A stretch of 32,000 nucleotides of DNA from Promethearchaeota archaeon (GCA_030606485.1 JAUWGH010000007.1:30001-62000); one strand, 5' to 3'. Positions 1 to 14,225 are shown, numbered from the stretch's first letter. Numbers and translations are program-made. Notes: generated from the letters alone by a model not told the origin.

Positions 1-996
1 AAAGCTAATAAACCAATTATTTCAATTTGTGCTGTAAGGACTGGATGTGGGAAAAGTCAAGTATCTAGGGCTGTATATCGCTATTTAAAAAATAGAGGTT
101 ATAAAGTTGTTGCGATCCGCGAACCAATGCCTTATGGAAATTTAATTGAACAAAATGTAATGCGTTTTGAAACTTATGAGGACTTGGATAAATTTAAATG
201 CACTATTGAAGAGCGAGAAGAATATGAACCGTATATTAAACAAAGATTGGTAATTTATTCTGGAGTTGATTATGAAAAAATTATTCGGGAAGCAGAAAAA
301 GAAGCAGATGTAATTATTTTCGATGGAGGCAATAACGAAATATCTTTCTATATTCCGGATTTACTTTTTGTTGTTGTAGATCCACTAAGACCCGGCCATG
401 AAACGAAATATTATCCAGGGGAAGTAAACGCACGGATGGCAGATGCATTTGTTATTAACAAAATGAATAGTGCAAAAATAGAAGATGTTTTAAAAGTTGA
501 AAAAAATCTCCAAGATTTAAATCCTGATGCGAAAAAGATTTTTACAAATTCTGTTGTTAGCTTAGAAAATTCTTATAACTTGAATGGTAAAAAAGTAATT
601 GTAGTTGAAGACGGTCCTACTCTAACCCATGGGGGTATGTCGTATGGGGCAGGGTATGTCGCGGCAAAAAATAAAGGAGCTGTTATTATTGACCCAAAAC
701 CTTATCTCACGGGTACATTGATAGAAATTTTTAAAGAATTCCCCCAAATTAAAGAAATTGTGCCTGCAATGGGATATAATGATCAACAAATAAAAGCTAT
801 GGAAGAAACGCTTAATAAATCAAAATGTGATCTTATTGTTAATGGGAGTCCAATTGATCTTGCGAAGTTAATTAATTGTAACAAACCAATAGTTAGAGTC
901 ACTTATGATATAGAAGCGGTAAGTAGTCCTACAATTGAGGAAGTTCTTGATGAATTCATTCAAAAGTTTTTAAAAAAACAAAACGGTAAAAATTAA
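1..996 (+). CDS. arcE: 5'-truncated arginine synthetase (ArcE)-type P-loop ATPase (COG2403, cyclic 2,3-diphosphoglycerate synthetase-like 'GTPase')
   Basis: Frame +1 is open from base 1 (KANKPIISICAVRTGCGKSQVSR...REPMPYG), so the gene starts upstream of the window, not at 127. It carries the family motifs AVRTGCGKS, CTIEEREEYEP, DGGNN, VEDGPTLTHGGM and PAMGY. Clustering with OTC and carbamate kinase favours ArcE over cDPGS. Confidence 0.72.
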   Translation, partial: KANKPIISICAVRTGCGKSQVSRAVYRYLKNRGYKVVAIREPMPYGNLIEQNVMRFETYEDLDKFKCTIEEREEYEPYIKQRLVIYSGVDYEKIIREAEKEADVIIFDGGNNEISFYIPDLLFVVVDPLRPGHETKYYPGEVNARMADAFVINKMNSAKIEDVLKVEKNLQDLNPDAKKIFTNSVVSLENSYNLNGKKVIVVEDGPTLTHGGMSYGAGYVAAKNKGAVIIDPKPYLTGTLIEIFKEFPQIKEIVPAMGYNDQQIKAMEETLNKSKCDLIVNGSPIDLAKLINCNKPIVRVTYDIEAVSSPTIEEVLDEFIQKFLKKQNGKN

Positions 997-1095
997 AAAA
1001 AAAGAGAAAGAACAGAATTCAAATAGAAGTCCTATTGTTAATTAATAATTATTATTTTTTATTTTTTATAAGACAAATTTGAAGAAATTAATAGA

Positions 1096-3285
1096 ATGAA
1101 AATGTTGATTTTAGTAGAAAAAAAATATGAATTAAAAAAAATAGCAAGAGGTTATACAAATCGGACCCTTTATATCAATTTAACAAAAAATGAAATCGTA
1201 ATTAAACCAATTACCAATGAAATGAAAGATAGATTTATTGGTGGCAAAGGATTCGATCTTTGGCTTATGTGGAATGCTCTACCTAAAGACCGAATTGTAA
1301 AATGGGATGATCCAGAAAATGAAATTTGTATCTCATCTGGTCCGCTTGGAGGTAACACATTTTACCCGGGTTCTGGAAAATCAATAGTCACAACAATATC
1401 TCCATTAACAGGTATAATAATTGATAGTAATGTTGGTGGTTATTTTGGGCCATATTTGAAATTTTCTGGATTTGATGCACTGGAAATTCATGGAAAAGCA
1501 AAACAAGAAATCATAATTTTTATTGATGGAATAAATGGAATTATTCGCATTGAAGAAATAAATGATTTTGAAAATCTTTCAAATGACTCTCATTTACTCA
1601 CGCAACAATTAACGGAAAAATATGCAAAAGATGAAAATGAAAAAACTCAAATTTCTGTTGTAAGTACTGGTCCAGCTTCTAAACATACCAAATGGGGAAT
1701 GTTAAATTTCTCTTGGTATAGTCGCAAGCGTAAATGGGCTTCATGTAAACAAGCAGGACGCGGTGGAGTTGGAACTGTCTTTGCTGATAAAAATATCAAA
1801 GCTTTAATTTGTCGGTCTCCAAAAGTTGATTTAAAAATAAATAATCCAGCAGATTTTGATACAGCTCGTAAGATCGGTAAAAAATATAACCAAGAGATTA
1901 TTAAATATGATCCAATACAAAATGAAATGAGATCTGTGGGAACAGGACATCTCCCAGGGATCATGAATGTATATGATCTTCTCCCAACTGAAAATTTTCG
2001 TTTTGGGTCTCATAAGGTAATAAAAGATAATAAAATTCCTCTCAATCGAGAAACATGGCGTAAAATCTTTTCTGGGGAATCTGGTAGTGATGGTTGTTGG
2101 TTTGGTTGTACACTCAGTTGTTCCCACTATTGTAGGGGGCATAAAGTAATAACTGGTCCTTATAAAGATCAAAAAGTTATTGTAGATGGTCCGGATTATG
2201 AAACTATTGCAGGTTGCGGTCCAAACTGGGGTGTGTGGGACCCCAAATGGTTATTAGAAACAAATTTCTACTGTGATACATATGGTCTCGATACAATCTC
2301 TGTAGGAACAGGAATTGCTTTTGTTATGGAATGTTATGAAGCTGGAATTTTAAATAAAGAAATCACTAATGGACTAGAACTTAATTTTGGTAATGCTTTT
2401 GCTGCTTTAGAACTAATCCATCAAATGGCTGAAGGGAAAGGGTTTGGTTTAATTGTAGGACAAGGTATTCATATAATGAAAAACATTTTTGCTGAGAAAT
2501 ATGGAGCAGATCCTAAATTTCTTCATGATATTGGTATGGAACATAAAGGTTTAGAATTCTCTGAATATGTTACCAAAGAATCATTGGCTCAACAAGGAGG
2601 ATATGGACTTACTCTAAAAGGACCGCAACATGATGAGGCATGGTTAATATTTGAAGATATGGTTAGAAAATCTATTCCAACATTTGAAGACAAGGCTAAA
2701 GCATTATGTTGGTTTCCTTTCTGGAGAACATGGTTCTCATTAAATGGACTTTGTAAATTACCATGGAATGATGTTCAACCACCAAATAATGTTGAATATC
2801 CTGTTAGAGACCCAAAAACTAAAGAACTTGTCCGTGCAAGGATTCCAAACCATGTTGAGTGGTATTCAGAATATTTTTCAGCTGTAACTGGTCGCAAATC
2901 TACTCCTAAGGATCTTATTAGAATGTCTGAGCGAGTGTATAACTTTCAGAGAATTTTTAATATCCGACAAGGTAAGGGTCTTCGAGAACATGATTCCAAT
3001 TTACCCTATAGAGCTGTTGGTCCTGTAACACCTATTGAATATGAGAGTCGTTTAGAGAGATATGATGATCAAATTAAAGATATTGGAATTGATATTAAAG
3101 GAAAAACAACAGAAGAAAAAATTAGGATTCTACGGGAGTATCGAGAAAAACAATATGAAATGCTCCAAGATGCTGTTTATAAACAACGTGGCTGGAATAA
3201 TAAGGGTTGTCCAACGATTGAAAAAGCCAAAGAATTAGGAATTGCATATGATGATGTTATTTCTGTGATTCTTCCCTATCAATAA
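1096..3285 (+). CDS. Tungsten/molybdopterin aldehyde:ferredoxin oxidoreductase (AOR/WOR family, long ~720-aa type)
   Basis: GYTNRTLYINL, FIGGKG, GPLGG, SPLTG, GGYFGPYLKFSGFDAL, AGRGGVG, GCWFGCTLSC, GPDYET, CDTYGLDTISVG motifs. Start could be ATG 1096 or ATG 1102. Confidence 0.93.
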   Translation: MKMLILVEKKYELKKIARGYTNRTLYINLTKNEIVIKPITNEMKDRFIGGKGFDLWLMWNALPKDRIVKWDDPENEICISSGPLGGNTFYPGSGKSIVTTISPLTGIIIDSNVGGYFGPYLKFSGFDALEIHGKAKQEIIIFIDGINGIIRIEEINDFENLSNDSHLLTQQLTEKYAKDENEKTQISVVSTGPASKHTKWGMLNFSWYSRKRKWASCKQAGRGGVGTVFADKNIKALICRSPKVDLKINNPADFDTARKIGKKYNQEIIKYDPIQNEMRSVGTGHLPGIMNVYDLLPTENFRFGSHKVIKDNKIPLNRETWRKIFSGESGSDGCWFGCTLSCSHYCRGHKVITGPYKDQKVIVDGPDYETIAGCGPNWGVWDPKWLLETNFYCDTYGLDTISVGTGIAFVMECYEAGILNKEITNGLELNFGNAFAALELIHQMAEGKGFGLIVGQGIHIMKNIFAEKYGADPKFLHDIGMEHKGLEFSEYVTKESLAQQGGYGLTLKGPQHDEAWLIFEDMVRKSIPTFEDKAKALCWFPFWRTWFSLNGLCKLPWNDVQPPNNVEYPVRDPKTKELVRARIPNHVEWYSEYFSAVTGRKSTPKDLIRMSERVYNFQRIFNIRQGKGLREHDSNLPYRAVGPVTPIEYESRLERYDDQIKDIGIDIKGKTTEEKIRILREYREKQYEMLQDAVYKQRGWNNKGCPTIEKAKELGIAYDDVISVILPYQ

Positions 3286-3326
3286 AATAAATAGAATAAA
3301 AAATCTTATCAGAAAATTGAGTTTTG

Positions 3327-5414
3327 ATGGAAAATATAACTAATCATCCCATCCTCAAGATACCTAAAAGAAAATTAGTTAATTTTAGTTTTAATGGGAA
3401 AAAATTAACGGGGTTTGAAGGAATGGTGATTTCCTCAGCTCTCTTTATGAATAAAATCAAAATTTTTGGTCATCATGTAAAAGATAACAGCCCTCAAGGT
3501 ATTTTTTGTTCTAATGGGCAGTGTGCTCAATGCACAGTTATTGTCAATGGCAAACCTGTAAAATCTTGCATGACTCCACTTGCAGACGGCATGATAATAG
3601 AAAGCTGTGAAGGTTTGCCGGAATTACCTGATGATGATAAATTGGTCTCAGTGGGAGATCCACCAATAATAGAAACTCAAGTGTTAATAATAGGTGCTGG
3701 ACCTGCTGGTCTTTCAGCCTGTCAAATCCTTGGAGAAAAAGGGGTTCAAGTAATTATAATTGATGATAAAGACAGACCTGGTGGAAAATTAGTCCTTCAA
3801 ACTCATAAATTTTTTGGCTCTCAAGAAGATGTATATGCAGGTAAACGAGGCATTGATATTGCAGAAATTCTCAGCGAGGCAGTTCACTCCTTATCTAATG
3901 TGGATGTTTGGCTTAACAGCACTGCTTTAGCTGTTTTTAGCGATGGTTTGATTGGCATATTAAAAAATAATGAAGAATATATAATAGTAAAGCCAAAATA
4001 TCTCTTAGTAGCTACAGGGGCAAGAGAACAAATGCTAGTATTTCCAGGGAATACCCTTCCAGGAGTGTATGGTGCTGGTGCATTTCAGACCTTGGTTAAT
4101 CGGGATTTAATTAAAGCTGCAGAACGTATTTTCATCGTAGGTGGCGGTAATGTCGGATTAATTGCAGGATATCATGCACTCCAAGCTGGAATTGAAGTTA
4201 TTGGCTTGATTGAAGCATTACCTCAATGTAGTGGATACAAAGTTCATGAAGATAAACTTAGATTCTTAGATGTTCCGGTTTATACCAGTCATACAATATT
4301 ATCTGCAAATGGAGATAATCAAGTAGAATCTATTACTATTGGACAAATAGATAAAAATTTTAATATTATTTCTGGAACTGAAAGAACTTTCGCTTGTGAT
4401 GCTATTTTAATTGCAGTTGGCTTAAACCCAGTAGATGAATTCTATCATAAAGCTAAGGAATATGGATTGAAAGTTTGGGTGGCTGGTGATGCTCAAGAGA
4501 TAGCAGAGGCATCTACAGCAATTTTTACTGGTAAAATTGAAGGAATTAAAATATTAAAGGAAATGAGACTTAATACAATAGATAATCTTGATAAACTTGA
4601 AGAAAAAGCAAGTATTATGAAATTAAAACCCCTTCCTCCAGTTCAAATAGATGTTCCAGATATAGAAGAAGGAATCTTTCCTGTTTTCCATTGCAATCAA
4701 GAAATCCCATGCAATCCTTGCACTTCTGTATGCCCTCAAAAGCAGATTGAAACGATTGATGATTCAATAATGCAATTACCATATTTTAAAGGGGAGAAAG
4801 AATGCACTGGTTGTGGACGATGCGTAGCTGTATGCCCTGGTTTAGCAGTAACTTTAATTGATTATCGTAAGGATAAAAACAATCCAATTGTTACTTTTCC
4901 ATTTGAAATGACAATTGAAAAGTTAAAGGTGGATCAAATAATCACAGTAGTTGGAAATCATGGCGAATTAGGCCAATTTAAAGTAATTAAGTCTAGAATT
5001 ATTAAAGAGTTTCCACTCACTCAACTTGTATCCATCAAATTAACATCTAAAATTGCTAAATATGCCGTGGGTATTAGATTACAACCATCAATTGTTAGAG
5101 AACCTTTAGAACTTTACTATAAACACCCTCTTGCTAATGATACCATTGTATGTCGATGTGAACGAGTAACAGTTGGTGAAATCAGAAAATGGATACATAA
5201 AGGAATAACTGATTTTAATGAGCTTAAAGCTTTAACTCAAGTTGGAATGGGAGCATGTGGAGGCAAAACATGCACTCCTCTTATTTATCGCATCTTCAGT
5301 GAAGAAGGAGTATCTCTTGATGAAATTACCCCCGGAACATTACGTCCTTTATTAATAGAAGTCCCCATGGGTCTTTTTGCTCGAACAAAGGAGGAGGATA
5401 AATATAGAATATGA
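3327..5414 (+). CDS. Multi-domain flavo-FeS subunit (proline dehydrogenase / sarcosine oxidase alpha-like): [2Fe-2S] + FAD/NAD oxidoreductase + 2x[4Fe-4S] + BFD-like [2Fe-2S]
   Basis: GIFCSNGQCAQC..C (fer2), GAGPAG and GGGNVG dinucleotide folds, CNPCTSVCP and CTGCGRCVAVCP ferredoxin motifs, CRCERV..GACGGKTC at the C-terminus. ATG at 3327 follows the TTG at 3324. Confidence 0.88.
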   Translation: MENITNHPILKIPKRKLVNFSFNGKKLTGFEGMVISSALFMNKIKIFGHHVKDNSPQGIFCSNGQCAQCTVIVNGKPVKSCMTPLADGMIIESCEGLPELPDDDKLVSVGDPPIIETQVLIIGAGPAGLSACQILGEKGVQVIIIDDKDRPGGKLVLQTHKFFGSQEDVYAGKRGIDIAEILSEAVHSLSNVDVWLNSTALAVFSDGLIGILKNNEEYIIVKPKYLLVATGAREQMLVFPGNTLPGVYGAGAFQTLVNRDLIKAAERIFIVGGGNVGLIAGYHALQAGIEVIGLIEALPQCSGYKVHEDKLRFLDVPVYTSHTILSANGDNQVESITIGQIDKNFNIISGTERTFACDAILIAVGLNPVDEFYHKAKEYGLKVWVAGDAQEIAEASTAIFTGKIEGIKILKEMRLNTIDNLDKLEEKASIMKLKPLPPVQIDVPDIEEGIFPVFHCNQEIPCNPCTSVCPQKQIETIDDSIMQLPYFKGEKECTGCGRCVAVCPGLAVTLIDYRKDKNNPIVTFPFEMTIEKLKVDQIITVVGNHGELGQFKVIKSRIIKEFPLTQLVSIKLTSKIAKYAVGIRLQPSIVREPLELYYKHPLANDTIVCRCERVTVGEIRKWIHKGITDFNELKALTQVGMGACGGKTCTPLIYRIFSEEGVSLDEITPGTLRPLLIEVPMGLFARTKEEDKYRI

Positions 5415-6567
5415 TGTAATTATAATAGGTTCGGGAAGTATTGGAGTTCCAACTGCATTAGCCACAGCTCATGATGGACTTAAAACACTCGTTATTGAAG
5501 TATTACCTTCTGTTGCTCAAGGAGACAATAAACATGCAATTGGTGGAATTCGAGCAACTCATTCACAAAAAAGTAAAATCTGGATTTGCCAAAGATCCAT
5601 AGAAATCTTTTCTACTTGGAAAAAGAAGTACGGGGATGATATTTGGTGGGATGAAGGGGGTTATGTTTTTATAGCATTTACAGAAGAACAAGAGAAATTG
5701 CTAAAAGACACTGTTGATCTTCAAAAAAAATATGGCTTAAATATTGAATATGTTGGTGCGGAAAAAATTAAGGAACTTATACCTGGTATTAATGATCAAG
5801 GGTTATTGGGTGGAACTTTTAGCCCTAAAGATGGAAATGCTTCCCCTTTATTAGCCTTACATTCCTTTTTTCGGCAGTCAATAAATTGGGGGGCAGAATA
5901 TAAATTTAAAGAAGAAGTTATTGATATTTTAAAAGATAATAAGAAAGTAACTGCTGTTAAAACTATAAAGGGCACCTATAAAACAAAAAATATTATTAAT
6001 GCAGCTGGAGCTCTTGCAAAAAAGATTGGTCAAATGGCTGGGATCGATATACCCATGCAACCTGATTCTCATGAAGCTGGAATTACTGAACCTATTAAAA
6101 AATTTTTTTCACCCATGGTTGTTGATATACAACCCTTCATAGATCCTAAATTTGGAAATTCAAAAAATTATTATTTCTATCAGAATAAAGAAGGACAAAT
6201 TATTTTCTGCCTTACTCCTGATCCAAGCAAATTTGGCACAGATCGAAGAGAAACAAGTTCCTTCTTACCGCAAATCTCAAAAAGGATGATTAAACTTTTA
6301 CCTCGTTTGCGCAATATAAAAATAAGACGAACATGGCGTGGGTTATACCCAATGACTCTTGATGGAAATCCTATTATTGGACCTGTTAATGGCCTTAAAG
6401 GATATATTAATGCAGTTGGGATGTGTGGACAAGGCTTTATGCTTGGTCCCGGGGTGGGGGAACTTCTAAGTCGTCTTTTAACTAGAAAAATTAATTCTCA
6501 AGATAATGAAATTCTTGAAGATCTTTCATTATATCGAAATTTTTATCAAGTAGAAAATTTTAAGTAA
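5377..6567 (+). CDS. FAD-dependent DAO-family oxidoreductase (proline dehydrogenase / sarcosine oxidase beta-like catalytic subunit)
   Basis: YDVIIIGSGSIG, GGIRA, INAAG, RTWRGLYPMTLDGNPIIG, GMCGQGFMLGPGVG motifs; overlaps the upstream alpha-like gene. Start is uncertain: TTG 5377, or ATA 5404 behind GGAGG. Confidence 0.88.
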   Translation: MLEQRRRINIEYDVIIIGSGSIGVPTALATAHDGLKTLVIEVLPSVAQGDNKHAIGGIRATHSQKSKIWICQRSIEIFSTWKKKYGDDIWWDEGGYVFIAFTEEQEKLLKDTVDLQKKYGLNIEYVGAEKIKELIPGINDQGLLGGTFSPKDGNASPLLALHSFFRQSINWGAEYKFKEEVIDILKDNKKVTAVKTIKGTYKTKNIINAAGALAKKIGQMAGIDIPMQPDSHEAGITEPIKKFFSPMVVDIQPFIDPKFGNSKNYYFYQNKEGQIIFCLTPDPSKFGTDRRETSSFLPQISKRMIKLLPRLRNIKIRRTWRGLYPMTLDGNPIIGPVNGLKGYINAVGMCGQGFMLGPGVGELLSRLLTRKINSQDNEILEDLSLYRNFYQVENFK

Positions 6568-6669
6568 AAATTTAAATAAAAAAATTATGGTATTACTCAA
6601 GTTAATAATTAAAGTAGAAAAATTATGATAATAAATAATTAAAATTAATGAAATTAGTGGTGCAGAAAA

Positions 6670-7602
6670 ATGACACGACATTTATTAAAGATCTCTGATT
6701 TCACAAAAGAGGAATCCGAGAAAATTATTAATAAAGCAATTGAAATCAAGGCAAATATGGAAAAATATAGTAATATTTTAAAAAACAAAACCCTTTTAAT
6801 GCTTTTTGAGAAACCATCTTTAAGAACTCGTATTTCTTTTGAAACGGGAATGGAACAACTTGGTGGCCATGCAATTTTTTATTCAATAAAAGATTCTCCT
6901 CTTGGAAAGAAAGAGAATATACATGATACAGCAAAAGTTGCCTCAAGATTTGTTGATTTAATTGCTGCTCGGGTTTTTAAAAGGGAGGATATTCGTGAAC
7001 TGGCAAAACATTCAAATGTTCCCGTTATAAATATGTTGGATGATTTCGCCCACCCTTGTCAAATTCTCAGCGATTTTCAAACTATTAAAGAGAAAAAAAA
7101 TCGTCTTAAAGACTTGAAACTCTCATATTTTGGAGATGCTCATAATAATGTTACCTATGACCTTATGAGGATGACTGCAATGTTTGGTTTAAGAATGGAT
7201 GTTGCTTGTCCCAAGGGTGTGGAGTATTCCCCTGAACAAGAAGTTCTGGATGAGGTTGCAGAACTTTCAAGGAATACTGGAGCCGAAGTAAGTATAATTA
7301 ATAATGCAATGGAAGCCGCAAAGGAATCTGATATTGTTTATACCGATTCATGGATGTCTTATGGAATTCCAGAAGAGCAAGAAGAGGAAAGAAAGAAAAT
7401 TTTTATGCCTTATCAAGTAACCTCCAATGTTATGTCAGCAGCAAAATTAGATGCAATTTTTATGAATTGTCTACCCGCAATGCGAGGATATGAACAGACT
7501 ACCGATGTTATTGACGGTTCTCAATCTATAGTATTTGATCAAGCAGAAAATCGCTTGCATGCGCAAAAAGCAATAATATTATTTTTACTAGACAAATTTT
7601 AA
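6670..7602 (+). CDS. arcB: Ornithine carbamoyltransferase (probably catabolic)
   Basis: FEKPSLRTR (carbamoyl-phosphate site), HPCQ, YTDSWMSYG, FMNCLPA, DQAENRLH motifs; adjacent to carbamate kinase. Confidence 0.92.
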   Translation: MTRHLLKISDFTKEESEKIINKAIEIKANMEKYSNILKNKTLLMLFEKPSLRTRISFETGMEQLGGHAIFYSIKDSPLGKKENIHDTAKVASRFVDLIAARVFKREDIRELAKHSNVPVINMLDDFAHPCQILSDFQTIKEKKNRLKDLKLSYFGDAHNNVTYDLMRMTAMFGLRMDVACPKGVEYSPEQEVLDEVAELSRNTGAEVSIINNAMEAAKESDIVYTDSWMSYGIPEEQEEERKKIFMPYQVTSNVMSAAKLDAIFMNCLPAMRGYEQTTDVIDGSQSIVFDQAENRLHAQKAIILFLLDKF

Positions 7603-7637
7603 AAAAAGAATTGCATACATTTTGGAGAAAAATTGTT

Positions 7638-8543
7638 ATGAAAACTTTAATCGTTGCGCTTGGTGGAAATGCGCTAATAAGATTTGGAGAAGAAGGAACT
7701 ACTGAAGAACAGTTTAGAAATCTACGAACTCCAATCAAACAAATTGCAGAATTATCAAAGGAATATAATATCATTATCACACATGGAAATGGACCTCAAG
7801 TTGGAAACCTTCTATTGCAACAAGAGGGAGCCAGTGAAGTCATAAAAAGACACCTGGGAATTTTAGTAGCTGAAACCCAAGGACAAATTGGTTATATGAT
7901 CGAATCAACCTTAGACGAGGAACTTATGCACCTTAATATTGATGTTGAAAAACTATTTCTTACCGTCTTAACATATGTACAGGTTGATCCTGAAGATCCA
8001 GCATTTAAGCATCCAACGAAACCAATCGGACCTGCTTATTCAGAACCAAGGTCTGGGTATATAAAAACTCCAAAAGGATGGCGACGGGTTGTTCCTTCAC
8101 CGAAACCAATTAAGATTTATCAATGGCGTGAAATAAAAAAATTGATGCAAGAAAATTTTATTGTAATCGCTTGTGGTGGCGGAGGAATTCCAGTTATAAA
8201 AGAGGGTAAACGATTGCAGGGAGTAGAAGCCGTTATTGATAAAGATCTTGCAAGTGCAAAACTGGGCGAACAAGTTGAAGCAGATATTCTATTAATTGCA
8301 ACTGATGTTGAGTATGTTGCTTTAAATTATAAAAAATCAAATCAAAGGAATTTACATAAGCTTTCAATTTCGGAAGCAAAAAAGTATTTAAAGGAAGGTC
8401 AATTCCCAGCTGGAAGTATGGGCCCAAAAATAGAAGCTGTTATTAGTTTTATAGAATCTGGTGGAGAAAGGGCAATTGTAACATCAATTGAAAATATTAA
8501 AACAGCATTGGAGGGAAAAGCAGGAACACATATATACAAATAA
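7638..8543 (+). CDS. arcC: Carbamate kinase
   Basis: VALGGNAL, THGNGPQVG, TQGQIGY, PTKPIGP, WRRVVPSP, GGGGIPV, AVIDKD, GSMGPK motifs. ATG 7638 (MKTLIV) lies behind GGAG and is preferred to TTG 7611. Confidence 0.96.
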   Translation: MKTLIVALGGNALIRFGEEGTTEEQFRNLRTPIKQIAELSKEYNIIITHGNGPQVGNLLLQQEGASEVIKRHLGILVAETQGQIGYMIESTLDEELMHLNIDVEKLFLTVLTYVQVDPEDPAFKHPTKPIGPAYSEPRSGYIKTPKGWRRVVPSPKPIKIYQWREIKKLMQENFIVIACGGGGIPVIKEGKRLQGVEAVIDKDLASAKLGEQVEADILLIATDVEYVALNYKKSNQRNLHKLSISEAKKYLKEGQFPAGSMGPKIEAVISFIESGGERAIVTSIENIKTALEGKAGTHIYK

Positions 8544-8620
8544 CTTATTTTTTAGTTTAATTATTATCCTCCTTGAAAATAGAAAAAATAGTTAGGAAAA
8601 AAAATTAGATTATGAAATAC

Positions 8621-9880
8621 TCATTCAACAATTACATCTTCAATTATCTTCAATGCCCAATCAATTTCTTCCTTGGTAATTATTAAAGGTGGAGCGAAAC
8701 GAATAGTTGTTGAGTGAGTATCCTTCGCTAGAATTCCCTTTTCTTTTAGGTTCTCTATGAAATGTCTTACATCTCCCTTAAACTCAATGGCGATTAATAA
8801 TCCCCTCCCTCTTACTTCTTTAACTGGGACTTTGGTTTTTTTATTTGTAATCTTTCGTAATTCCTTAATAAAATAAGCTCCAACCTCTCTTGCTCGTTCT
8901 GCGAGATTTTCATTAATATGAATATCCAATGATTTCATAGCAACTGCAGCTGCTAAAGGATTACCACCAAAAGTACTTCCATGAGTTCCTGGAGTTATTA
9001 CATCTGGACCGATAATTTCAGTTGTTGTTACAACTGCCGAAACTGGATATACTCCCCCTCCAAGTGCTTTACCTAGTAGAAACATATCTGGTTTAACATT
9101 TTCATGATCACACGCGAAAAGCTTACCAGTTCTACATAAACCCGTCTGTATTTCATCAACCATTAATAAAACATTATATTTAGTGCAAATTCTTCTAATC
9201 TTTTTTAAATATCCCTCTGGAGGGATTTTTACTCCCGCCTCTCCTTGTATTGGTTCAACCAAAAATGCTGCTACATTTTCGGGGCCAATTTCTAAGATTG
9301 TATTTTCTAATTTTTGTGCGTCTCCGTAAGGAATAATAATAAATCCTGGCGTAAAAGGACCAAAATTCCCAAAATATCTTGCATGTTGAATATCCGTACT
9401 TAATCCTACAATTGTAATTGTTCTACCATGAAAATTATCACCACATACTATAATTTTCGCCTCTCCTCTTGGTATCTTTTTCTTTATATAACCCCATGCT
9501 CTTGCGACTTTCAAACCAGTCTCCACTGCTTCTGCACCTGTATTCATCGGTAGAGCCATTATCCCTGTTTTTTTTGGATCATACACATGTGGTCCAACAA
9601 TATCACATAATTGCTTTAAATAAGGTCCCATCATGTCATTATGGAATGCTCGAGAAGTTAATGTAACTTTATCAGCTTGCTCTTTCAATGCTTTTATTAT
9701 TTCAGGATGACAATGACCTGTATTTTGACTTGAATATGCTGATAAACAGTCAAGATACTTTTTACCTTCTGGATCATATACCCAACACCCTTCTGCTTTT
9801 GATATTACTACAGGGATGGGATGATAATTATGAGCACCATATTTTAAATCCATTTCAATGAATTCTTTTGAACTTGGCAT
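8621..9880 (-). CDS. rocD: Ornithine delta-aminotransferase (class III PLP)
   Basis: GAHNYHPIPVV, DCLSAYS, LTSRAF, MNTGAEAVET, NFHGRT, EPIQGEAG, DEIQTGLCRTG, LGKALGGG, HGSTFGGNPLA motifs. Confidence 0.93.
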   Translation of the reverse strand: MPSSKEFIEMDLKYGAHNYHPIPVVISKAEGCWVYDPEGKKYLDCLSAYSSQNTGHCHPEIIKALKEQADKVTLTSRAFHNDMMGPYLKQLCDIVGPHVYDPKKTGIMALPMNTGAEAVETGLKVARAWGYIKKKIPRGEAKIIVCGDNFHGRTITIVGLSTDIQHARYFGNFGPFTPGFIIIPYGDAQKLENTILEIGPENVAAFLVEPIQGEAGVKIPPEGYLKKIRRICTKYNVLLMVDEIQTGLCRTGKLFACDHENVKPDMFLLGKALGGGVYPVSAVVTTTEIIGPDVITPGTHGSTFGGNPLAAAVAMKSLDIHINENLAERAREVGAYFIKELRKITNKKTKVPVKEVRGRGLLIAIEFKGDVRHFIENLKEKGILAKDTHSTTIRFAPPLIITKEEIDWALKIIEDVIVE

Positions 9881-10162: not shown

Positions 10163-11146
10163 GTGTTTCTTTTTTTGAAAAAAAATTTAAAATCATTATT
10201 AAGTCAAAATAAATTCATTCTTTTTGGTGGAAAAGGCGGAGTGGGGAAAACCTCCATCTCGTCTGCTTCAGCAATTTGGGCTGCAGAGCATGGCAGAAAA
10301 ACATTAATAATAAGTACTGATCCAGCACATTCCTTAGGGGATTCTTTAGATCAAAAATTACCAAAAGGAGAAACAGTTCAAGTAGAAAATGTTAGTAATT
10401 TATATGCCTTAGAAATTAATCCTAAAATCAATCTGGATGAATATCAATCAGCTATGAATGTAAATCCGCTTGAATCTATGCCTTTTGGAAATTCTCTGCC
10501 TTTTATGGAAGATATAGGAAGTTTTGCGAGCATGAATCCTCCAGGAATAGATGAGGCAATGGCTTTTGGAAAAGTTTTAGAATTTATTGAGACAGAATCA
10601 GATTTTGATTTGGTAATTTTTGATACAGCTCCAACAGGACATACTTTACGCCTTCTTGCACTACCGGATCTTTTATCTGGCTGGATTGGCAAACTAATCT
10701 CTCTGCGTTTGAAATTAGGTAAAATTTTTGGTGTGTTTAAAAAAATGTTCTCAAAAACAGAAGTGGAAGGAGAAGATCCATTTGAAATGTTTAAAAAATT
10801 AAAGAATTCAATAGTAAATGCTAGGGATGAATTAAAGGATCCTTCAAAAACATCCTTTGTTATTGTTATGATCTCGGAGGCTATGGCTCTTTATGAAACT
10901 GAGCGATTAAGAAGTGGCCTTTATCAATATGAAATCCCCTTTTCCAATATAATTGTTAACCAGATTTTCCCAGAATCTATTGATTGCAAATTTTGCCAAT
11001 CTCGACGCAATATGCAGTTGAAGAACTTAAAAGAAATTAGATATCTTTACGAAGATGATTTTAATTTAATAGAAATTCCACTATTTGATACTGAGATAAG
11101 GGGTTATGAACAGCTAAAAAAGTTGGGTAAATATTTATTTCAATAA
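10163..11146 (+). CDS. get3: ArsA/Get3(TRC40)-family ATPase, single domain
   Basis: GGKGGVGKTS, STDPAHSL, PPGIDE, FDTAPTGHTLRLL motifs and a C-terminal CKFC. Start may be TTG 10175 behind AGGTG. Confidence 0.88.
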   Translation: MFLFLKKNLKSLLSQNKFILFGGKGGVGKTSISSASAIWAAEHGRKTLIISTDPAHSLGDSLDQKLPKGETVQVENVSNLYALEINPKINLDEYQSAMNVNPLESMPFGNSLPFMEDIGSFASMNPPGIDEAMAFGKVLEFIETESDFDLVIFDTAPTGHTLRLLALPDLLSGWIGKLISLRLKLGKIFGVFKKMFSKTEVEGEDPFEMFKKLKNSIVNARDELKDPSKTSFVIVMISEAMALYETERLRSGLYQYEIPFSNIIVNQIFPESIDCKFCQSRRNMQLKNLKEIRYLYEDDFNLIEIPLFDTEIRGYEQLKKLGKYLFQ

Positions 11147-12099
11147 GGAGCTATTTTTTCCTTTATTTCACAAAAAAGGCAGATTTCTCTATTTTTTCCG
11201 CAAAGTTGATTACAAATTTTACAAGTATTAAAGTTAATTTTTTTTCCCCTTAATTTTTTATTAAATTCCCATAAAATATCAGATAATTCCACAAAGCCTT
11301 TGAAGAGGTTAAATTTTATTTCAGGACTATATTCTTCACAATTATTTAGAAATGATTGCACTCTTTTACGTAAAATCGGGTATTTTATTTTATAAGGGCA
11401 AGGAACATTAACAAAATTTAACTCTTTGTTTTGAGCATACAGAAGAATTTCTTTTTCGGGAATTTTCATTAAAGGTTTTATCTTTTTCATGTATATTTTA
11501 TTATTTTCTTCAAGAAATGGATTCATTCTTGAAATTTTGTTAAAATCTTTTCTTAAAAAATTCATTAAGAATGTTTGAGAAACATCATCCAAGTTATGTC
11601 CTAGAACTAAAACGGTTCCACCTAATCTTTTTCCTTCATCATTGAGCAAACGGCGTCTAATTGTTGCACATATATTACATGGATAAATTTCTCCATAATT
11701 ATTTTTATAAATTTCCAAAATTTCATCCATACTTTTTCCTAATTTCTCTTTAAATGAAACAATTTTATGTGTGATGCTATTATTTTTACAAAATTCTTTA
11801 GATTTTCTTATACTCTTCCCTCTATATTCTGAAATACCTTCATTAATGGTTAATGCAATAATTGAAGGAGAATTAGAAATCTTTTTTTGTATTTTAATTA
11901 AATTATATAAAAGTACCATCGAATCTTTCCCACCAGATAAACCTAAGATTATCTTATCTTGTGGTTTCAACATTTTAAATTTAGAAATTGTTTTGTATAT
12001 TTGGTGCTCAATAGATTTATTAAAACAATTGATGCACAAATTTTCACCAGAATAGTTCAGGTGATATATACTGTCATTTTTACAATAACTACATTTCAT
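11140..12099 (-). CDS. ncsA: tRNA 2-thiolation protein (NcsA/TtuA/Ctu1 family, PP-loop)
   Basis: N-terminal CSYC..CINC zinc finger, LSGGKDS, CNICATIRR, GHNLDD, CPY, C-terminal CKIC..CLFC. Confidence 0.9.
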   Translation of the reverse strand: MKCSYCKNDSIYHLNYSGENLCINCFNKSIEHQIYKTISKFKMLKPQDKIILGLSGGKDSMVLLYNLIKIQKKISNSPSIIALTINEGISEYRGKSIRKSKEFCKNNSITHKIVSFKEKLGKSMDEILEIYKNNYGEIYPCNICATIRRRLLNDEGKRLGGTVLVLGHNLDDVSQTFLMNFLRKDFNKISRMNPFLEENNKIYMKKIKPLMKIPEKEILLYAQNKELNFVNVPCPYKIKYPILRKRVQSFLNNCEEYSPEIKFNLFKGFVELSDILWEFNKKLRGKKINFNTCKICNQLCGKNREICLFCEIKEKIAPY

Positions 12100-12116: not shown

Positions 12117-14225
12117 TTAAAAATTAAATATACTTAAAATATTCCCAAATCTCATAAATGATAAAATAATATTAGCTAAAAAAGCTAATGTAATAATCAA
12201 CCTGATCGAATTTATTATTTTTTTCTTGATTGGACTCTTACTATCAAATTGATATTCATAATTAACTACCAAAATTGACTTTTCTTTAATTTTTGATGTC
12301 TCTGGAAATGTTAAAGCCAAAACATCCTTAAAACCATCTCCAGTTCCATCAATTAAATGATAGTTATCTAAGCCAATAATTATTTCTCCTTCTTCAGATT
12401 TTAATTTTAATGAATTTATTTTGTTTATTCTATATTGATTTAATGGATACTCTTTTTTCTCTCTTTTATAGTAAAATTCTTCTGTCTTCTTTTCTGTAGA
12501 ATCATATTTTTCACCTATTATTTTATTAATAATCTCTTTAACTATTCGATCTCCATCAAAAATTGGAAGAGGCAACATATTAAATAATGTGACACTAAAA
12601 GCAACAACAAAAAACCATAAAAGTTGTCTTAATAAATAAAAAGGAAATGTGCCTGAAAACCAAATAGATAAAAAATTTTTTGGTATCCAATAATTCTCAT
12701 TACTAAATATGCCAATTTTAACTGATTTAGTAGGAATTTCTAATGTATTTGCATTAATTTCTAAAATTTCTTGGTCTCGTTTAATTTTAAAATTGATAGG
12801 TTCACTAGGATTTAAAGTCAAATTATCAATTATATTCTTAAAACTATGTTCGTTCGATTGTATATCAATCCCTTCTACCTCAAGGATTTGATCACCTTCC
12901 TTAAATATCCCCTCATTTATACCAGATTCAGTTAAATTATTAAAAACCTTTGAAATATGAATATCATTATTACCTAGATCTTCATAAAGGATTCCCATAT
13001 ACAAATTTTCAAAAATAAATGCCCCGGGAACCAAAGGTACAGCATCAACATCCAATAAATAGGATACTCCGTTATTTGCTGTAAGATTTAGATAATCACC
13101 CGGTTGGACTTGAGTTAAAGTATAATCTATTGTTATGTTTTTGGATACATCAACTTGAGTTCCATTAATCTTAGTAATGAGAGTTCCAACTGTTAGATTT
13201 TTATCGTAATTATTTCCTCCTTGAAGGGCGGAATATACTTGGTTTATTTTTAATTCTCCATTTGAAATATTTTCATAGGAAATTCCAATAAAATTGTAGA
13301 TCCCCAAAATAACAGACTTATATAAATATGAATTGGAATTTACATTATAAATCGTAAAATTAAGAGAATCTCCAACTGAACATTTAATTTGAGTTTTATT
13401 TGTTAATATTTTGTTTAAATCCACTTCATTGTCAATATCAATTAAGGTCTCGTTTATCGCTACCACAACATCTCCCTCGATTAAATTATAATAATTATAC
13501 CCACCTTCATATGGATAAGAAACATAATCAATTTGAAACACTCTAGGTCCATAAAAAGGAAAAATTAGAGTTGTAAAATTTAATATGAGTAAAATACCAA
13601 TACCAGCCATTATTGCATTTGAATATGTGCCTGCTGCTGCTATTCTCAGACGCGTTTTCCATAAACTTGGTTTTGAATTTAACGTGTGTTCATCAACTTC
13701 AACATAGGCTCCAAAACCTAACAAATAAAATAACCCTCCTGCAAAAACTCCTGTTGATAAAACATTAATATTATCTGACCCTGCAGCAATTGCATGAGAA
13801 AATTCATGAATGGTAACAACGAATAGTATTGGAATTATTAAGTACGCAAATGTTGGAAGATCAATTGTTAACCCAGGTACCAAAGGAAGAATAGCATTTT
13901 CAATCGATGGACTAATTATTAATGATACTAGATTATAAAATATGAACCAAATTCCATAAATCATAAAAAAAAAAGAAACAAAAAATCCACAACTCCAAAA
14001 TATACGCCAAAATTTTGGGTGCCATTGAGATACTCTCTTCAAAAATTTATTTAACCGTTTTGTTCCAACCATTGCAAATAATGGAATAAAAATATTTATC
14101 AATCCTTTTCTTTTTTTTCCGAATACTATGATAATGATGAGCATAATTATCCAAAATATTGAGGATATTATAAAAAAAGGATTTAACACTATTTCTAATA
14201 AAATTTCAATTAAATTTATTGACAT
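12117..14225 (-). CDS. Site-2 intramembrane metalloprotease (M50) with three PDZ-like inserts
   Basis: HEFSH zinc motif, GAYVEVDE, AAAGTYSN, NMLPLPIFDG; several TM helices; three repeats resembling G.N...L..GD.I..ING..ID. Confidence 0.9.
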   Translation of the reverse strand: MSINLIEILLEIVLNPFFIISSIFWIIMLIIIIVFGKKRKGLINIFIPLFAMVGTKRLNKFLKRVSQWHPKFWRIFWSCGFFVSFFFMIYGIWFIFYNLVSLIISPSIENAILPLVPGLTIDLPTFAYLIIPILFVVTIHEFSHAIAAGSDNINVLSTGVFAGGLFYLLGFGAYVEVDEHTLNSKPSLWKTRLRIAAAGTYSNAIMAGIGILLILNFTTLIFPFYGPRVFQIDYVSYPYEGGYNYYNLIEGDVVVAINETLIDIDNEVDLNKILTNKTQIKCSVGDSLNFTIYNVNSNSYLYKSVILGIYNFIGISYENISNGELKINQVYSALQGGNNYDKNLTVGTLITKINGTQVDVSKNITIDYTLTQVQPGDYLNLTANNGVSYLLDVDAVPLVPGAFIFENLYMGILYEDLGNNDIHISKVFNNLTESGINEGIFKEGDQILEVEGIDIQSNEHSFKNIIDNLTLNPSEPINFKIKRDQEILEINANTLEIPTKSVKIGIFSNENYWIPKNFLSIWFSGTFPFYLLRQLLWFFVVAFSVTLFNMLPLPIFDGDRIVKEIINKIIGEKYDSTEKKTEEFYYKREKKEYPLNQYRINKINSLKLKSEEGEIIIGLDNYHLIDGTGDGFKDVLALTFPETSKIKEKSILVVNYEYQFDSKSPIKKKIINSIRLIITLAFLANIILSFMRFGNILSIFNF

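Follow-up and report, generated by a model that had tools for sequence, protein, structure and literature searches.

A tungsten aldehyde:ferredoxin oxidoreductase as candidate glutamate-5-semialdehyde oxidoreductase in an arginine and proline gene cluster of a Loki-type archaeon

Gene content of the locus

We analyzed a window of 32,000 nucleotides from the genome of a Promethearchaeota archaeon (GCA_030606485.1, JAUWGH010000007.1:30001-62000; G000:C6:30001-62000 in our numbering), the first 9,880 positions of which hold a cluster where a tungsten aldehyde:ferredoxin oxidoreductase (AOR) lies among genes of arginine and proline metabolism. The genome comprises 3.75 Mb in 13 contigs and is 100% complete by marker genes; the G+C content of the window is 25 to 35%. 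Since the nearest relatives of the AOR (96 to 97% identity) are found in metagenome-assembled genomes of Promethearchaeota, the host is a Loki-type Asgard archaeon. The original prediction, made from the sequence of the window, described six genes on one strand and a convergent ornithine aminotransferase gene, and all seven were recovered in place by open reading frame (ORF) listing and by Pfam and NCBIfam scans:

1-996, + strand: ORF1, ArcE-like P-loop protein, C-terminal 331 residues, truncated by the window start
997-1095, + strand: AT-rich spacer with T-runs and a TATA-like TTTATAA about 30 nucleotides before the AOR start (sequence reading)
1096-3285, + strand: AOR, 729 residues, AFOR_N and AFOR_C domains
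3324-5414, + strand: alpha, a fused Fe-S flavoprotein of 696 residues with Fer2_4, Pyr_redox_2, 4Fe-4S dicluster and BFD-like 2Fe-2S domains
5377-6567, + strand: beta, DAO-type (Pfam DAO, 1.1e-56)
6670-7602, + strand: ornithine carbamoyltransferase (OTC; arcB/argF), TIGR00658, 372 bits for a cut-off of 280.85
7611-8543, + strand: carbamate kinase (arcC), TIGR00746, 376.8 bits for a cut-off of 358.25
8621-9880, - strand: ornithine--oxo-acid aminotransferase (OAT; rocD type), TIGR01885, 536.5 bits for a cut-off of 378.4

The OTC also passes NF001986 (380.8 bits, cut-off 306), and OTC, carbamate kinase and OAT are all above NCBIfam equivalog cut-offs. The OAT gene is convergent with that of carbamate kinase, for which the sequence suggests ATG at 7638 as the likely start. 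The likely start of alpha is ATG at 3327; the start codon of beta is uncertain, its homologues having 388 residues.

The spacers between ArcE and AOR and between beta and OTC, about 100 nucleotides each, are AT-rich, with T-runs and TATA-like motifs, while the 38-nucleotide spacer between AOR and alpha has neither. Because spacers of the first kind flank the AOR-alpha-beta group and none separates AOR from alpha, the cluster is likely read as four transcription units: arcE, AOR-alpha-beta, OTC-carbamate kinase, and OAT. The spacer at 997-1095 could then hold both the terminator of arcE and the promoter of AOR-alpha-beta.

As had also been predicted, the window carries no gene for an arginine deiminase (ADI), an arginase or a 1-pyrroline-5-carboxylate (P5C) dehydrogenase. 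We found no ADI in the whole genome; one arginase-family gene (contig C10) and one gene of the aldehyde dehydrogenase (Aldedh) family lie on other contigs.

A probable ArcE-family protein without ADI

The complete ORF1 starts 363 nucleotides before the window (G000:C6:29638; L001:1138-2496) and encodes 452 residues with the P-loop GCGKS. It passes no Pfam or NCBIfam model. In a search of 1.8 billion representatives, 416 clusters matched it at E <1e-30; its named relatives are called 'predicted GTPase' or 'GTPase', and the full-length ones share 37 to 58% identity with it. Could it be a true cyclic 2,3-diphosphoglycerate synthetase (cDPGS)? Such an enzyme, 9sxb, is its sole PDB match, with an E value of 2e-6 over 114 residues (214-327). 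This short and weak match, the failure to find a CpgS_N domain at E up to 0.1, and the ranking in the Atlas, where 'putative GTPase' clusters score 0.99 and the cDPGS (CpgS_N) cluster comes at rank 35 with 0.91, rule this assignment out. A thymidylate-kinase-like assignment was also rejected (22 bits, below the cut-off).

The homologues of TK2200, the ArcE of Thermococcus kodakarensis, are annotated as putative GTPases, resemble cDPGS weakly and occur in Lokiarchaeota (PMC11032458). Because ORF1 fits this published description, because its gene is syntenic with those of OTC and carbamate kinase (in 36 related loci), and because no ADI is present, ORF1 is very probably an enzyme of the ArcE (arginine synthetase) family, as originally proposed. 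Its distant homologues in Thermoproteota, Gaiella and one metagenome cluster have no OTC or carbamate kinase gene nearby, which says little, as the T. kodakarensis genes are dispersed too.

The alpha/beta flavoenzyme

The solved protein closest to beta is the beta subunit of proline dehydrogenase (PDH) 1 from Pyrococcus horikoshii (PH1364, 1y56_B; 1.1e-53), followed by glycine oxidase (1.4e-24) and the beta subunit of sarcosine oxidase (5e-24), which agrees with the dye-linked PDH role implied in the original prediction. Alpha matches 2gag_A (3e-24) and 1y56_A (PH1363; 5e-21) over its N-terminal half only. Among NCBIfam models, the two proteins give only sub-threshold matches to the soxA/soxB families. 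Alpha and beta are always paired across Asgard families, and a PDH is the best reading of their sequences.

In nine related loci (L017:8255-9877 and eight other Loki loci), beta is followed by a gene, absent from the window, for a 540-residue Amidohydro_3 protein resembling D-aminoacylases, which may deliver the substrate of alpha/beta.

The AOR protein

The AOR contains both domains of its family, AFOR_N (PF02730, 158 bits, 2.9e-46) and AFOR_C (PF01314, 301 bits, 1.5e-89), and is about equally distant from AOR (1aor, 1e-47), formaldehyde:ferredoxin oxidoreductase (FOR; 1b25, 3.5e-42) and WOR5 (4e-35) in the PDB. It stays far under every NCBIfam subfamily cut-off (NF007354, 96 bits versus 868), and glyceraldehyde-3-phosphate:ferredoxin oxidoreductase (GAPOR) was rejected as an identity at 47 bits versus 1300. 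Cys334, Cys338, Cys342, Cys553, Thr283, Tyr368-Glu369 and His512 align with the corresponding residues of the Pyrococcus furiosus AOR, the cluster cysteines being spaced Cx3Cx3C plus a distal Cys. Cluster and catalytic residues are invariant in 96 orthologues, except that Thr283 is Ser in three of them.

The tree of these 96 orthologues follows the organisms, and in it the branch of the cluster-linked clade is short; cluster-linked and unlinked AORs are told apart by no more than 2 of the 729 positions. For these two reasons, the AOR of the cluster does not look like a specialized paralogue, and its orthologues elsewhere probably act likewise. By its sequence, it is an unexceptional member, inherited vertically, of a clade common to Asgard archaea, Bathyarchaeia and a few others. 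This genome encodes ten paralogues of the AFOR family.

Producers and consumers of glutamate-5-semialdehyde in the genome

Glutamate-5-semialdehyde (GSA) equilibrates with P5C, which is its cyclic form, and the glycyl-radical enzyme HypD makes P5C from hydroxyproline. The genome encodes three GSA/P5C producers: OAT, the probable PDH, and a HypD at C5:131827-134175 (1334 bits, cut-off 1100). On the side of consumption, ProC, ProA and ProB were not found genome-wide. The sole Aldedh-family gene (G000:C12:93642-95030) is generic. It misses the P5C-dehydrogenase cut-offs (NF002852, 155 versus 648; TIGR01237, 131 versus 660), and its best matches, to succinate-semialdehyde dehydrogenase and lactaldehyde dehydrogenase, are also sub-threshold. 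As it reaches no specific NCBIfam cut-off, the absence of a dedicated P5C dehydrogenase, first noted for the window, extends to the genome.

Neither an ArgG above cut-off nor an ArgJ was found genome-wide; CarB and an ArgC/LysY-like gene are present. Since ArgG is lacking, ArcE would be the only arginine-citrulline enzyme of the genome.

Conservation of the cluster in Loki-type genomes

We examined 80 genome loci with AOR orthologues of 59 to 97% identity. AOR is followed by alpha in 42 of them; beta was found in 36, ArcE in 36, OTC in 35, carbamate kinase in 26 and OAT in 22, numbers that are minima, since several contigs end inside the cluster. An AOR-alpha-beta core within the ArcE/OTC/carbamate kinase/OAT cluster is present in about 40 Loki-type genomes, and this recurrence of the same gene order shows that the arrangement is not due to chance. 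AOR-alpha-beta is the least interrupted part: AOR and alpha are split in five loci only, by ThiC or two other genes. ArcE and AOR are often separated, by the flavodoxin-like gene (16 loci), a TetR-like gene and others, and so are OTC and carbamate kinase.

Two of the inserted genes deserve mention. ThiC, a radical SAM enzyme that synthesizes the thiamine pyrimidine, lies between AOR and alpha in L014, L015, L018 and L038. In L011 (1422-1985) and 15 further Loki loci, a gene for a 187-residue Flavodoxin_5 protein directly precedes AOR, which it does not adjoin in the window; its product may accept the electrons of the AOR.

Distribution across Asgard archaea

About 300 Asgard genomes were surveyed (counts are over 301), with the following distribution by family (f) and genus (g):

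AOR orthologue, single copy, 165/301 genomes: f1 47/68, f2 6/7, f7 24/28, f9 60/76, f24 17/21, f29 10/11; none in other families
PDH beta: f1 44/68 (g1, g2, g4 and g5 only), f2 5/7, f7 15/28, f24 8/21, f29 5/11, f9 0/76
OAT orthologues: f1 (g1, g2, g4, g5), f2, f7, f24, f29, f16; not f9
proC: f1 48/68, f2 2/7, f24 15/21; none in f7, f9, f29
ProA: f1 g3, g6, g7, g8, g9 (and 1/2 in g5), f2 g12, f3, f21; none in g1, g2, g4

By coordinates, AOR adjoins beta only in f1 g1, g2, g4 and g5 and in f2 g11. In the Loki genus g6, which has neither PDH nor OAT, proC is about 2 kb from AOR in two genomes. Elsewhere, the neighbors of AOR are of other kinds: genes for phosphoenolpyruvate carboxykinase (PEPCK), an Arf-type GTPase and an Ldh_2 enzyme are among those of the sampled f9, f7 and f29 loci, and genes for an isocitrate/isopropylmalate-type dehydrogenase (IsoDH), a ThiS-like protein, DUF362 and aconitase among those of Heimdall/Hod-type loci. 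In four f7 loci (L100-L103), AOR is followed by the Arf-family small GTPase and the Ldh_2-family dehydrogenase, the latter family including pyrroline- and piperideine-2-carboxylate reductases.

The HypD cut-off is passed in 136 of the 301 genomes, including the present one. In family f9, a glycyl-radical match is found in 73 of 76 genomes, at least 40 genomes are above the HypD cut-off, and ProC is found in none of the 76. As HypD is present there while proC is absent, f9 would make P5C from hydroxyproline without a P5C reductase, which fits the AOR as a sink. The usual pairing of HypD with proC is thus missing from whole HypD-bearing families.

AOR and proC in Bathyarchaeia

A second series of gene contexts comes from outside Asgard archaea. 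The proC gene is divergent from the AOR orthologue in three Bathyarchaeia genome loci, and convergent with it on one Thermodesulfobacteriota contig. In a Bathyarchaeota locus (L077:5473-13630), the order is proC (-), HypD activase (+), HypD (+), AOR (+), prolyl-tRNA synthetase (-), with scores of 1288 bits (cut-off 1100) for HypD and 270 (cut-off 197) for proC. HypD lies beside AOR in this locus only, and in none of 80 metagenome loci that were retrieved with a Bathyarchaeia AOR orthologue as query.

In these 80 metagenome loci, proC is within 400 nucleotides of AOR in 16 cases, and within 5 kb in 22. Of the 16, 11 have proC co-directional just downstream of AOR, with gaps of 26 to 375 nucleotides (L128, L131, L132, L140, L154, L164, L165, L167, L168, L171 and L185), and five have it divergent and upstream (L124-L127 and L177). 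These loci include kin, and are not independent; AOR and proC nevertheless occur in three arrangements in Bathyarchaeia, and such different arrangements argue for selection. In four Bathyarchaeia genomes with the AOR orthologue, three of which have the adjoining proC, no ProA is found, and no ProB above cut-off. The AOR-proC pair is a candidate for an ATP-independent route from glutamate to proline, and the entire AOR clade seems to be associated with P5C metabolism. In Bathyarchaeia, the AOR orthologue often has another, distant AOR paralogue (26 to 30% identity) as its immediate neighbor (L123, L126, L127, L137, L140 and others).

A candidate role for the AOR

The following scheme can be proposed. 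Judging from family membership and synteny, ArcE, OTC and carbamate kinase would convert arginine to ornithine with the formation of two substrate-level ATP. OAT would convert ornithine to GSA, the alpha/beta flavoenzyme proline to P5C, and HypD, encoded elsewhere in the genome, hydroxyproline to P5C. The AOR would then oxidize GSA to glutamate, reducing ferredoxin or the flavodoxin whose gene adjoins that of the AOR in relatives, in a reaction that may run in either direction. The AOR is proposed as the sink of GSA because the genome has no ProC, ProA, ProB or recognizable P5C dehydrogenase. On purely inferential grounds, the fused alpha might merge high-potential electrons from proline oxidation with the very low-potential ones from aldehyde oxidation.

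We hold with moderate confidence that the AOR is a GSA/glutamate:ferredoxin oxidoreductase. What speaks most for it is that a single AOR clade, passed on vertically, has PDH and OAT as neighbors in Loki-type genomes and proC, once with HypD, in Bathyarchaeia. Part of what was originally predicted is thereby sustained, namely the linkage of the AOR to genes around P5C, which is seen in two archaeal phyla; the analysis does not support a sequence specialization of the enzyme, a linkage throughout the clade or a settled catabolic direction. As to the novelty of such a role, our literature searches found nothing joining AOR with GSA or P5C, or Asgard AORs with arginine or proline. A related idea had, however, been put forward: the FOR of P. 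furiosus binds glutarate, and a C5 semialdehyde has been proposed as its physiological substrate (PMC12096430).

Several observations weigh against this role. The weakest point is that the linkage is missing in most Asgard families: four of the six AOR-bearing families (f7, f9, f24 and f29) show none to arginine or proline genes, and the Loki genera f1 g3, g6, g8 and g9 and f2 g10 lack one of the PDH/OAT type. No cluster gene lies near AOR in 20 sampled loci of f9, f7 and f29, Heimdall/Hod-type AOR loci are likewise unlinked, and in f7, f24, f29 and f2 g10 alpha and beta form a separate two-gene unit, far from AOR or on other contigs. Within the Loki cluster itself, insertions (flavodoxin, TetR-like, ThiC) split ArcE from AOR, and sometimes AOR from alpha. 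The presence of the AOR and of GSA/P5C producers does not always coincide, genus g3 having AOR without PDH, OAT or HypD, and families f14 and f15 having HypD without AOR. Genes of the Aldedh family occur widely in the phylum (33/33 in f9), so that an NAD(P)-linked sink of GSA is possible outside this genome. Finally, the two distinguishing positions give no sign of specialization, the genome has ten AOR paralogues, and AOR-family enzymes often accept a wide range of substrates. A catabolic direction of flux is also uncertain: the genome has no ArgG, so that ArcE may make arginine as well.

Alternative explanations

Part of these points would be accounted for if the AOR were a broad-specificity aldehyde:ferredoxin oxidoreductase of peptide fermenters, clearing aldehydes derived from 2-oxoacids, with its place in the cluster due to co-regulation or neutral drift, and GSA and P5C handled by the single Aldedh or excreted. 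In favor of this, six Asgard families have inherited the orthologues vertically, mostly among unrelated neighbors (PEPCK, Arf GTPase, FeoB, aconitase/IsoDH), the cluster-linked clade has no group-specific residues, the genome has its ten paralogues and Aldedh genes are widespread in the phylum; moreover, Asgard AORs have been treated as multifunctional (bioRxiv 10.1101/2023.11.21.568159). However, the recurrent adjacency of proC in three arrangements, together with the HypD-AOR locus, is difficult to reconcile with an unrelated housekeeping function. In addition, five genera keep AOR-alpha-beta intact despite repeated interruptions elsewhere in the cluster, and the genome has three producers of GSA/P5C and no dedicated consumer. 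We regard a purely general role as unlikely, without its being far-fetched.

Another possibility is that the cluster works anabolically: low-potential ferredoxin would drive the reduction of glutamate to GSA by the AOR, OAT would form ornithine, OTC would make citrulline from it with carbamoyl phosphate, and ArcE would make arginine, proline also being formed from P5C in ProC-bearing relatives, all without acetylated intermediates and without ProB/ProA. Such a flux would suit a genome with CarB and without ArgJ, ProA, ProB or an ArgG above cut-off, in which ArcE is the only arginine-citrulline enzyme, as well as the AOR-proC pairs of Bathyarchaeia genomes without ProA and ProB; a biosynthetic role was raised for the same gene pattern in the paper on ArcE (PMC11032458). 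Carbamate kinase and a rocD-type OAT are, in contrast, catabolic signatures, and the ArgC/LysY-like gene elsewhere in the genome could supply ornithine by the LysW route. This genome itself has no ProC, and the reduction of an acid by ferredoxin is uphill unless pulled by later steps. Cultured Loki relatives, for their part, live by the fermentation of amino acids, most of which they cannot make themselves (PMC11316595). On balance, an anabolic cluster seems quite improbable.

The least probable alternative by far, that alpha/beta is another amine or opine dehydrogenase (sarcosine-, opine- or D-amino-acid-type) whose released aldehyde, for instance formaldehyde, is oxidized by the AOR, draws on the breadth of the alpha/beta family (which also holds heterotetrameric sarcosine oxidase, HCN synthase and opine oxidases), on the lack in alpha of the folate-binding C-terminal part of SoxA, such that a demethylase would free formaldehyde, on the D-aminoacylase-like amidohydrolase behind beta in nine related loci and on the nearly equal match of the AOR to FOR and AOR, but it is countered by the 1e-53 match of beta to a solved PDH beta, against 5e-24 or weaker to sarcosine and glycine oxidases, and by surrounding genes and Bathyarchaeia contexts that point to P5C rather than to C1 units.

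Among these readings, we favor the oxidation of GSA by the AOR. A wider claim, that the AOR clade is a reversible glutamate/GSA:ferredoxin oxidoreductase replacing both P5C dehydrogenase and ProB/ProA in Asgard archaea and Bathyarchaeia, is put forward only tentatively, as it is rather doubtful at present.

Surroundings and occurrence of the locus

Directly before arcE and on the same strand (G000:C6:23145-29527; L003:7145-13527) lie genes for a fused aconitase, both subunits of ATP-citrate lyase and an isocitrate/isopropylmalate-type dehydrogenase. In a near relative (L069), a proC gene stands in front of this aconitase/ATP-citrate lyase block, a gene that the present genome has lost. Downstream of the cluster, the window continues with:

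10163-11146, + strand: Get3/ArsA-type ATPase
11140-12099, - strand: TtuA/NcsA-type tRNA thiolation enzyme
12117-14225, - strand: M50 site-2 protease with PDZ domain, 702 residues

Positions 1-9880 of the window are wholly present in four sequencing runs of one 2025 study. In one of them (X3), the stretch is recovered as one contig at a depth of about 120, with 181 differences from the present sequence (about 98% identity); a close strain is abundant in the material of that run. Two cold-seep runs labeled 'RNA-Seq', which are probably DNA, contain only small parts of the stretch, and no RNA run was listed among those containing it.

Implications

No physiological substrate is known for the majority of tungsten AORs, although in Asgard archaea and Bathyarchaeia they rank with the most numerous and most strongly expressed redox enzymes. 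If the proposed role is correct, it would explain how the breakdown of arginine, proline and hydroxyproline is finished without an NAD-dependent dehydrogenase, yielding reduced ferredoxin from which H2 or formate could be made in syntrophy, and how ProC is used in genomes without ProA and ProB. It would also extend the reach of the recently discovered arginine synthetase pathway to those archaea that are closest to eukaryotes. If, furthermore, the AOR were reversible, it would provide, together with proC, an ATP-independent route from glutamate to proline and, together with OAT, OTC and ArcE, an arginine route of Loki-type archaea without acetylated intermediates.

Comparison with known systems

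The arginine synthetase pathway itself is already known. In T. kodakarensis, it consists of ArcE (TK2200), OTC (TK0871), carbamate kinase (TK2158) and ornithine aminotransferase (TK2101) (PMC11032458), where Lokiarchaeota are already listed among the holders of arcE. Both organisms have an ArcE-family protein, OTC, carbamate kinase and OAT, have no ADI, and live on peptides and amino acids. However, genes that are dispersed in T. kodakarensis are clustered here around an AOR and a PDH pair, and the outlet from ornithine to proline of T. kodakarensis is missing here for want of ProC; the present genome is also without ArgG, and has a carbamoyl-phosphate synthetase.

The alpha/beta pair shares with the PDH of Thermococcales (PH1363/PH1364, 1Y56; the alpha-beta-gamma-delta PDH2 type) the DAO-type beta and the FAD/NAD(P) oxidoreductase core of alpha. 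Unlike in these enzymes, alpha is here a single fusion of 696 residues that adds an N-terminal 2Fe-2S domain, a 4Fe-4S dicluster domain and a BFD-like 2Fe-2S domain. With the AOR (1AOR) and FOR (1B25/1B4N) of P. furiosus, the AOR of the window has in common the fold family, the ligands of the tungsten-pterin and of the 4Fe-4S cluster, and the catalytic Glu, Tyr, His and Thr; it differs by about 100 additional residues, by its Cx3Cx3C motif and by belonging to an uncharacterized clade. Papers on Asgard metabolism treat AORs as both multifunctional and uncharacterized (bioRxiv 10.1101/2023.11.21.568159).

HypD, its activase and proC are grouped in the Bathyarchaeota locus L077 as HypD and P5C reductase are in gut Clostridia. 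Unlike the clostridial system, L077 has the AOR orthologue behind HypD on the same strand, and most HypD-bearing Asgard genomes are without proC.

Lastly, the canonical P5C dehydrogenases (RocA/PutA, of the Aldedh family) and ProB/ProA carry out the same reaction as the one proposed here, from GSA to glutamate or the reverse. The AOR route would differ from them in its protein family, in its tungstopterin cofactor and in the use of ferredoxin or flavodoxin instead of NAD(P), and, compared with ProB/ProA, it would need no ATP in the reductive direction.

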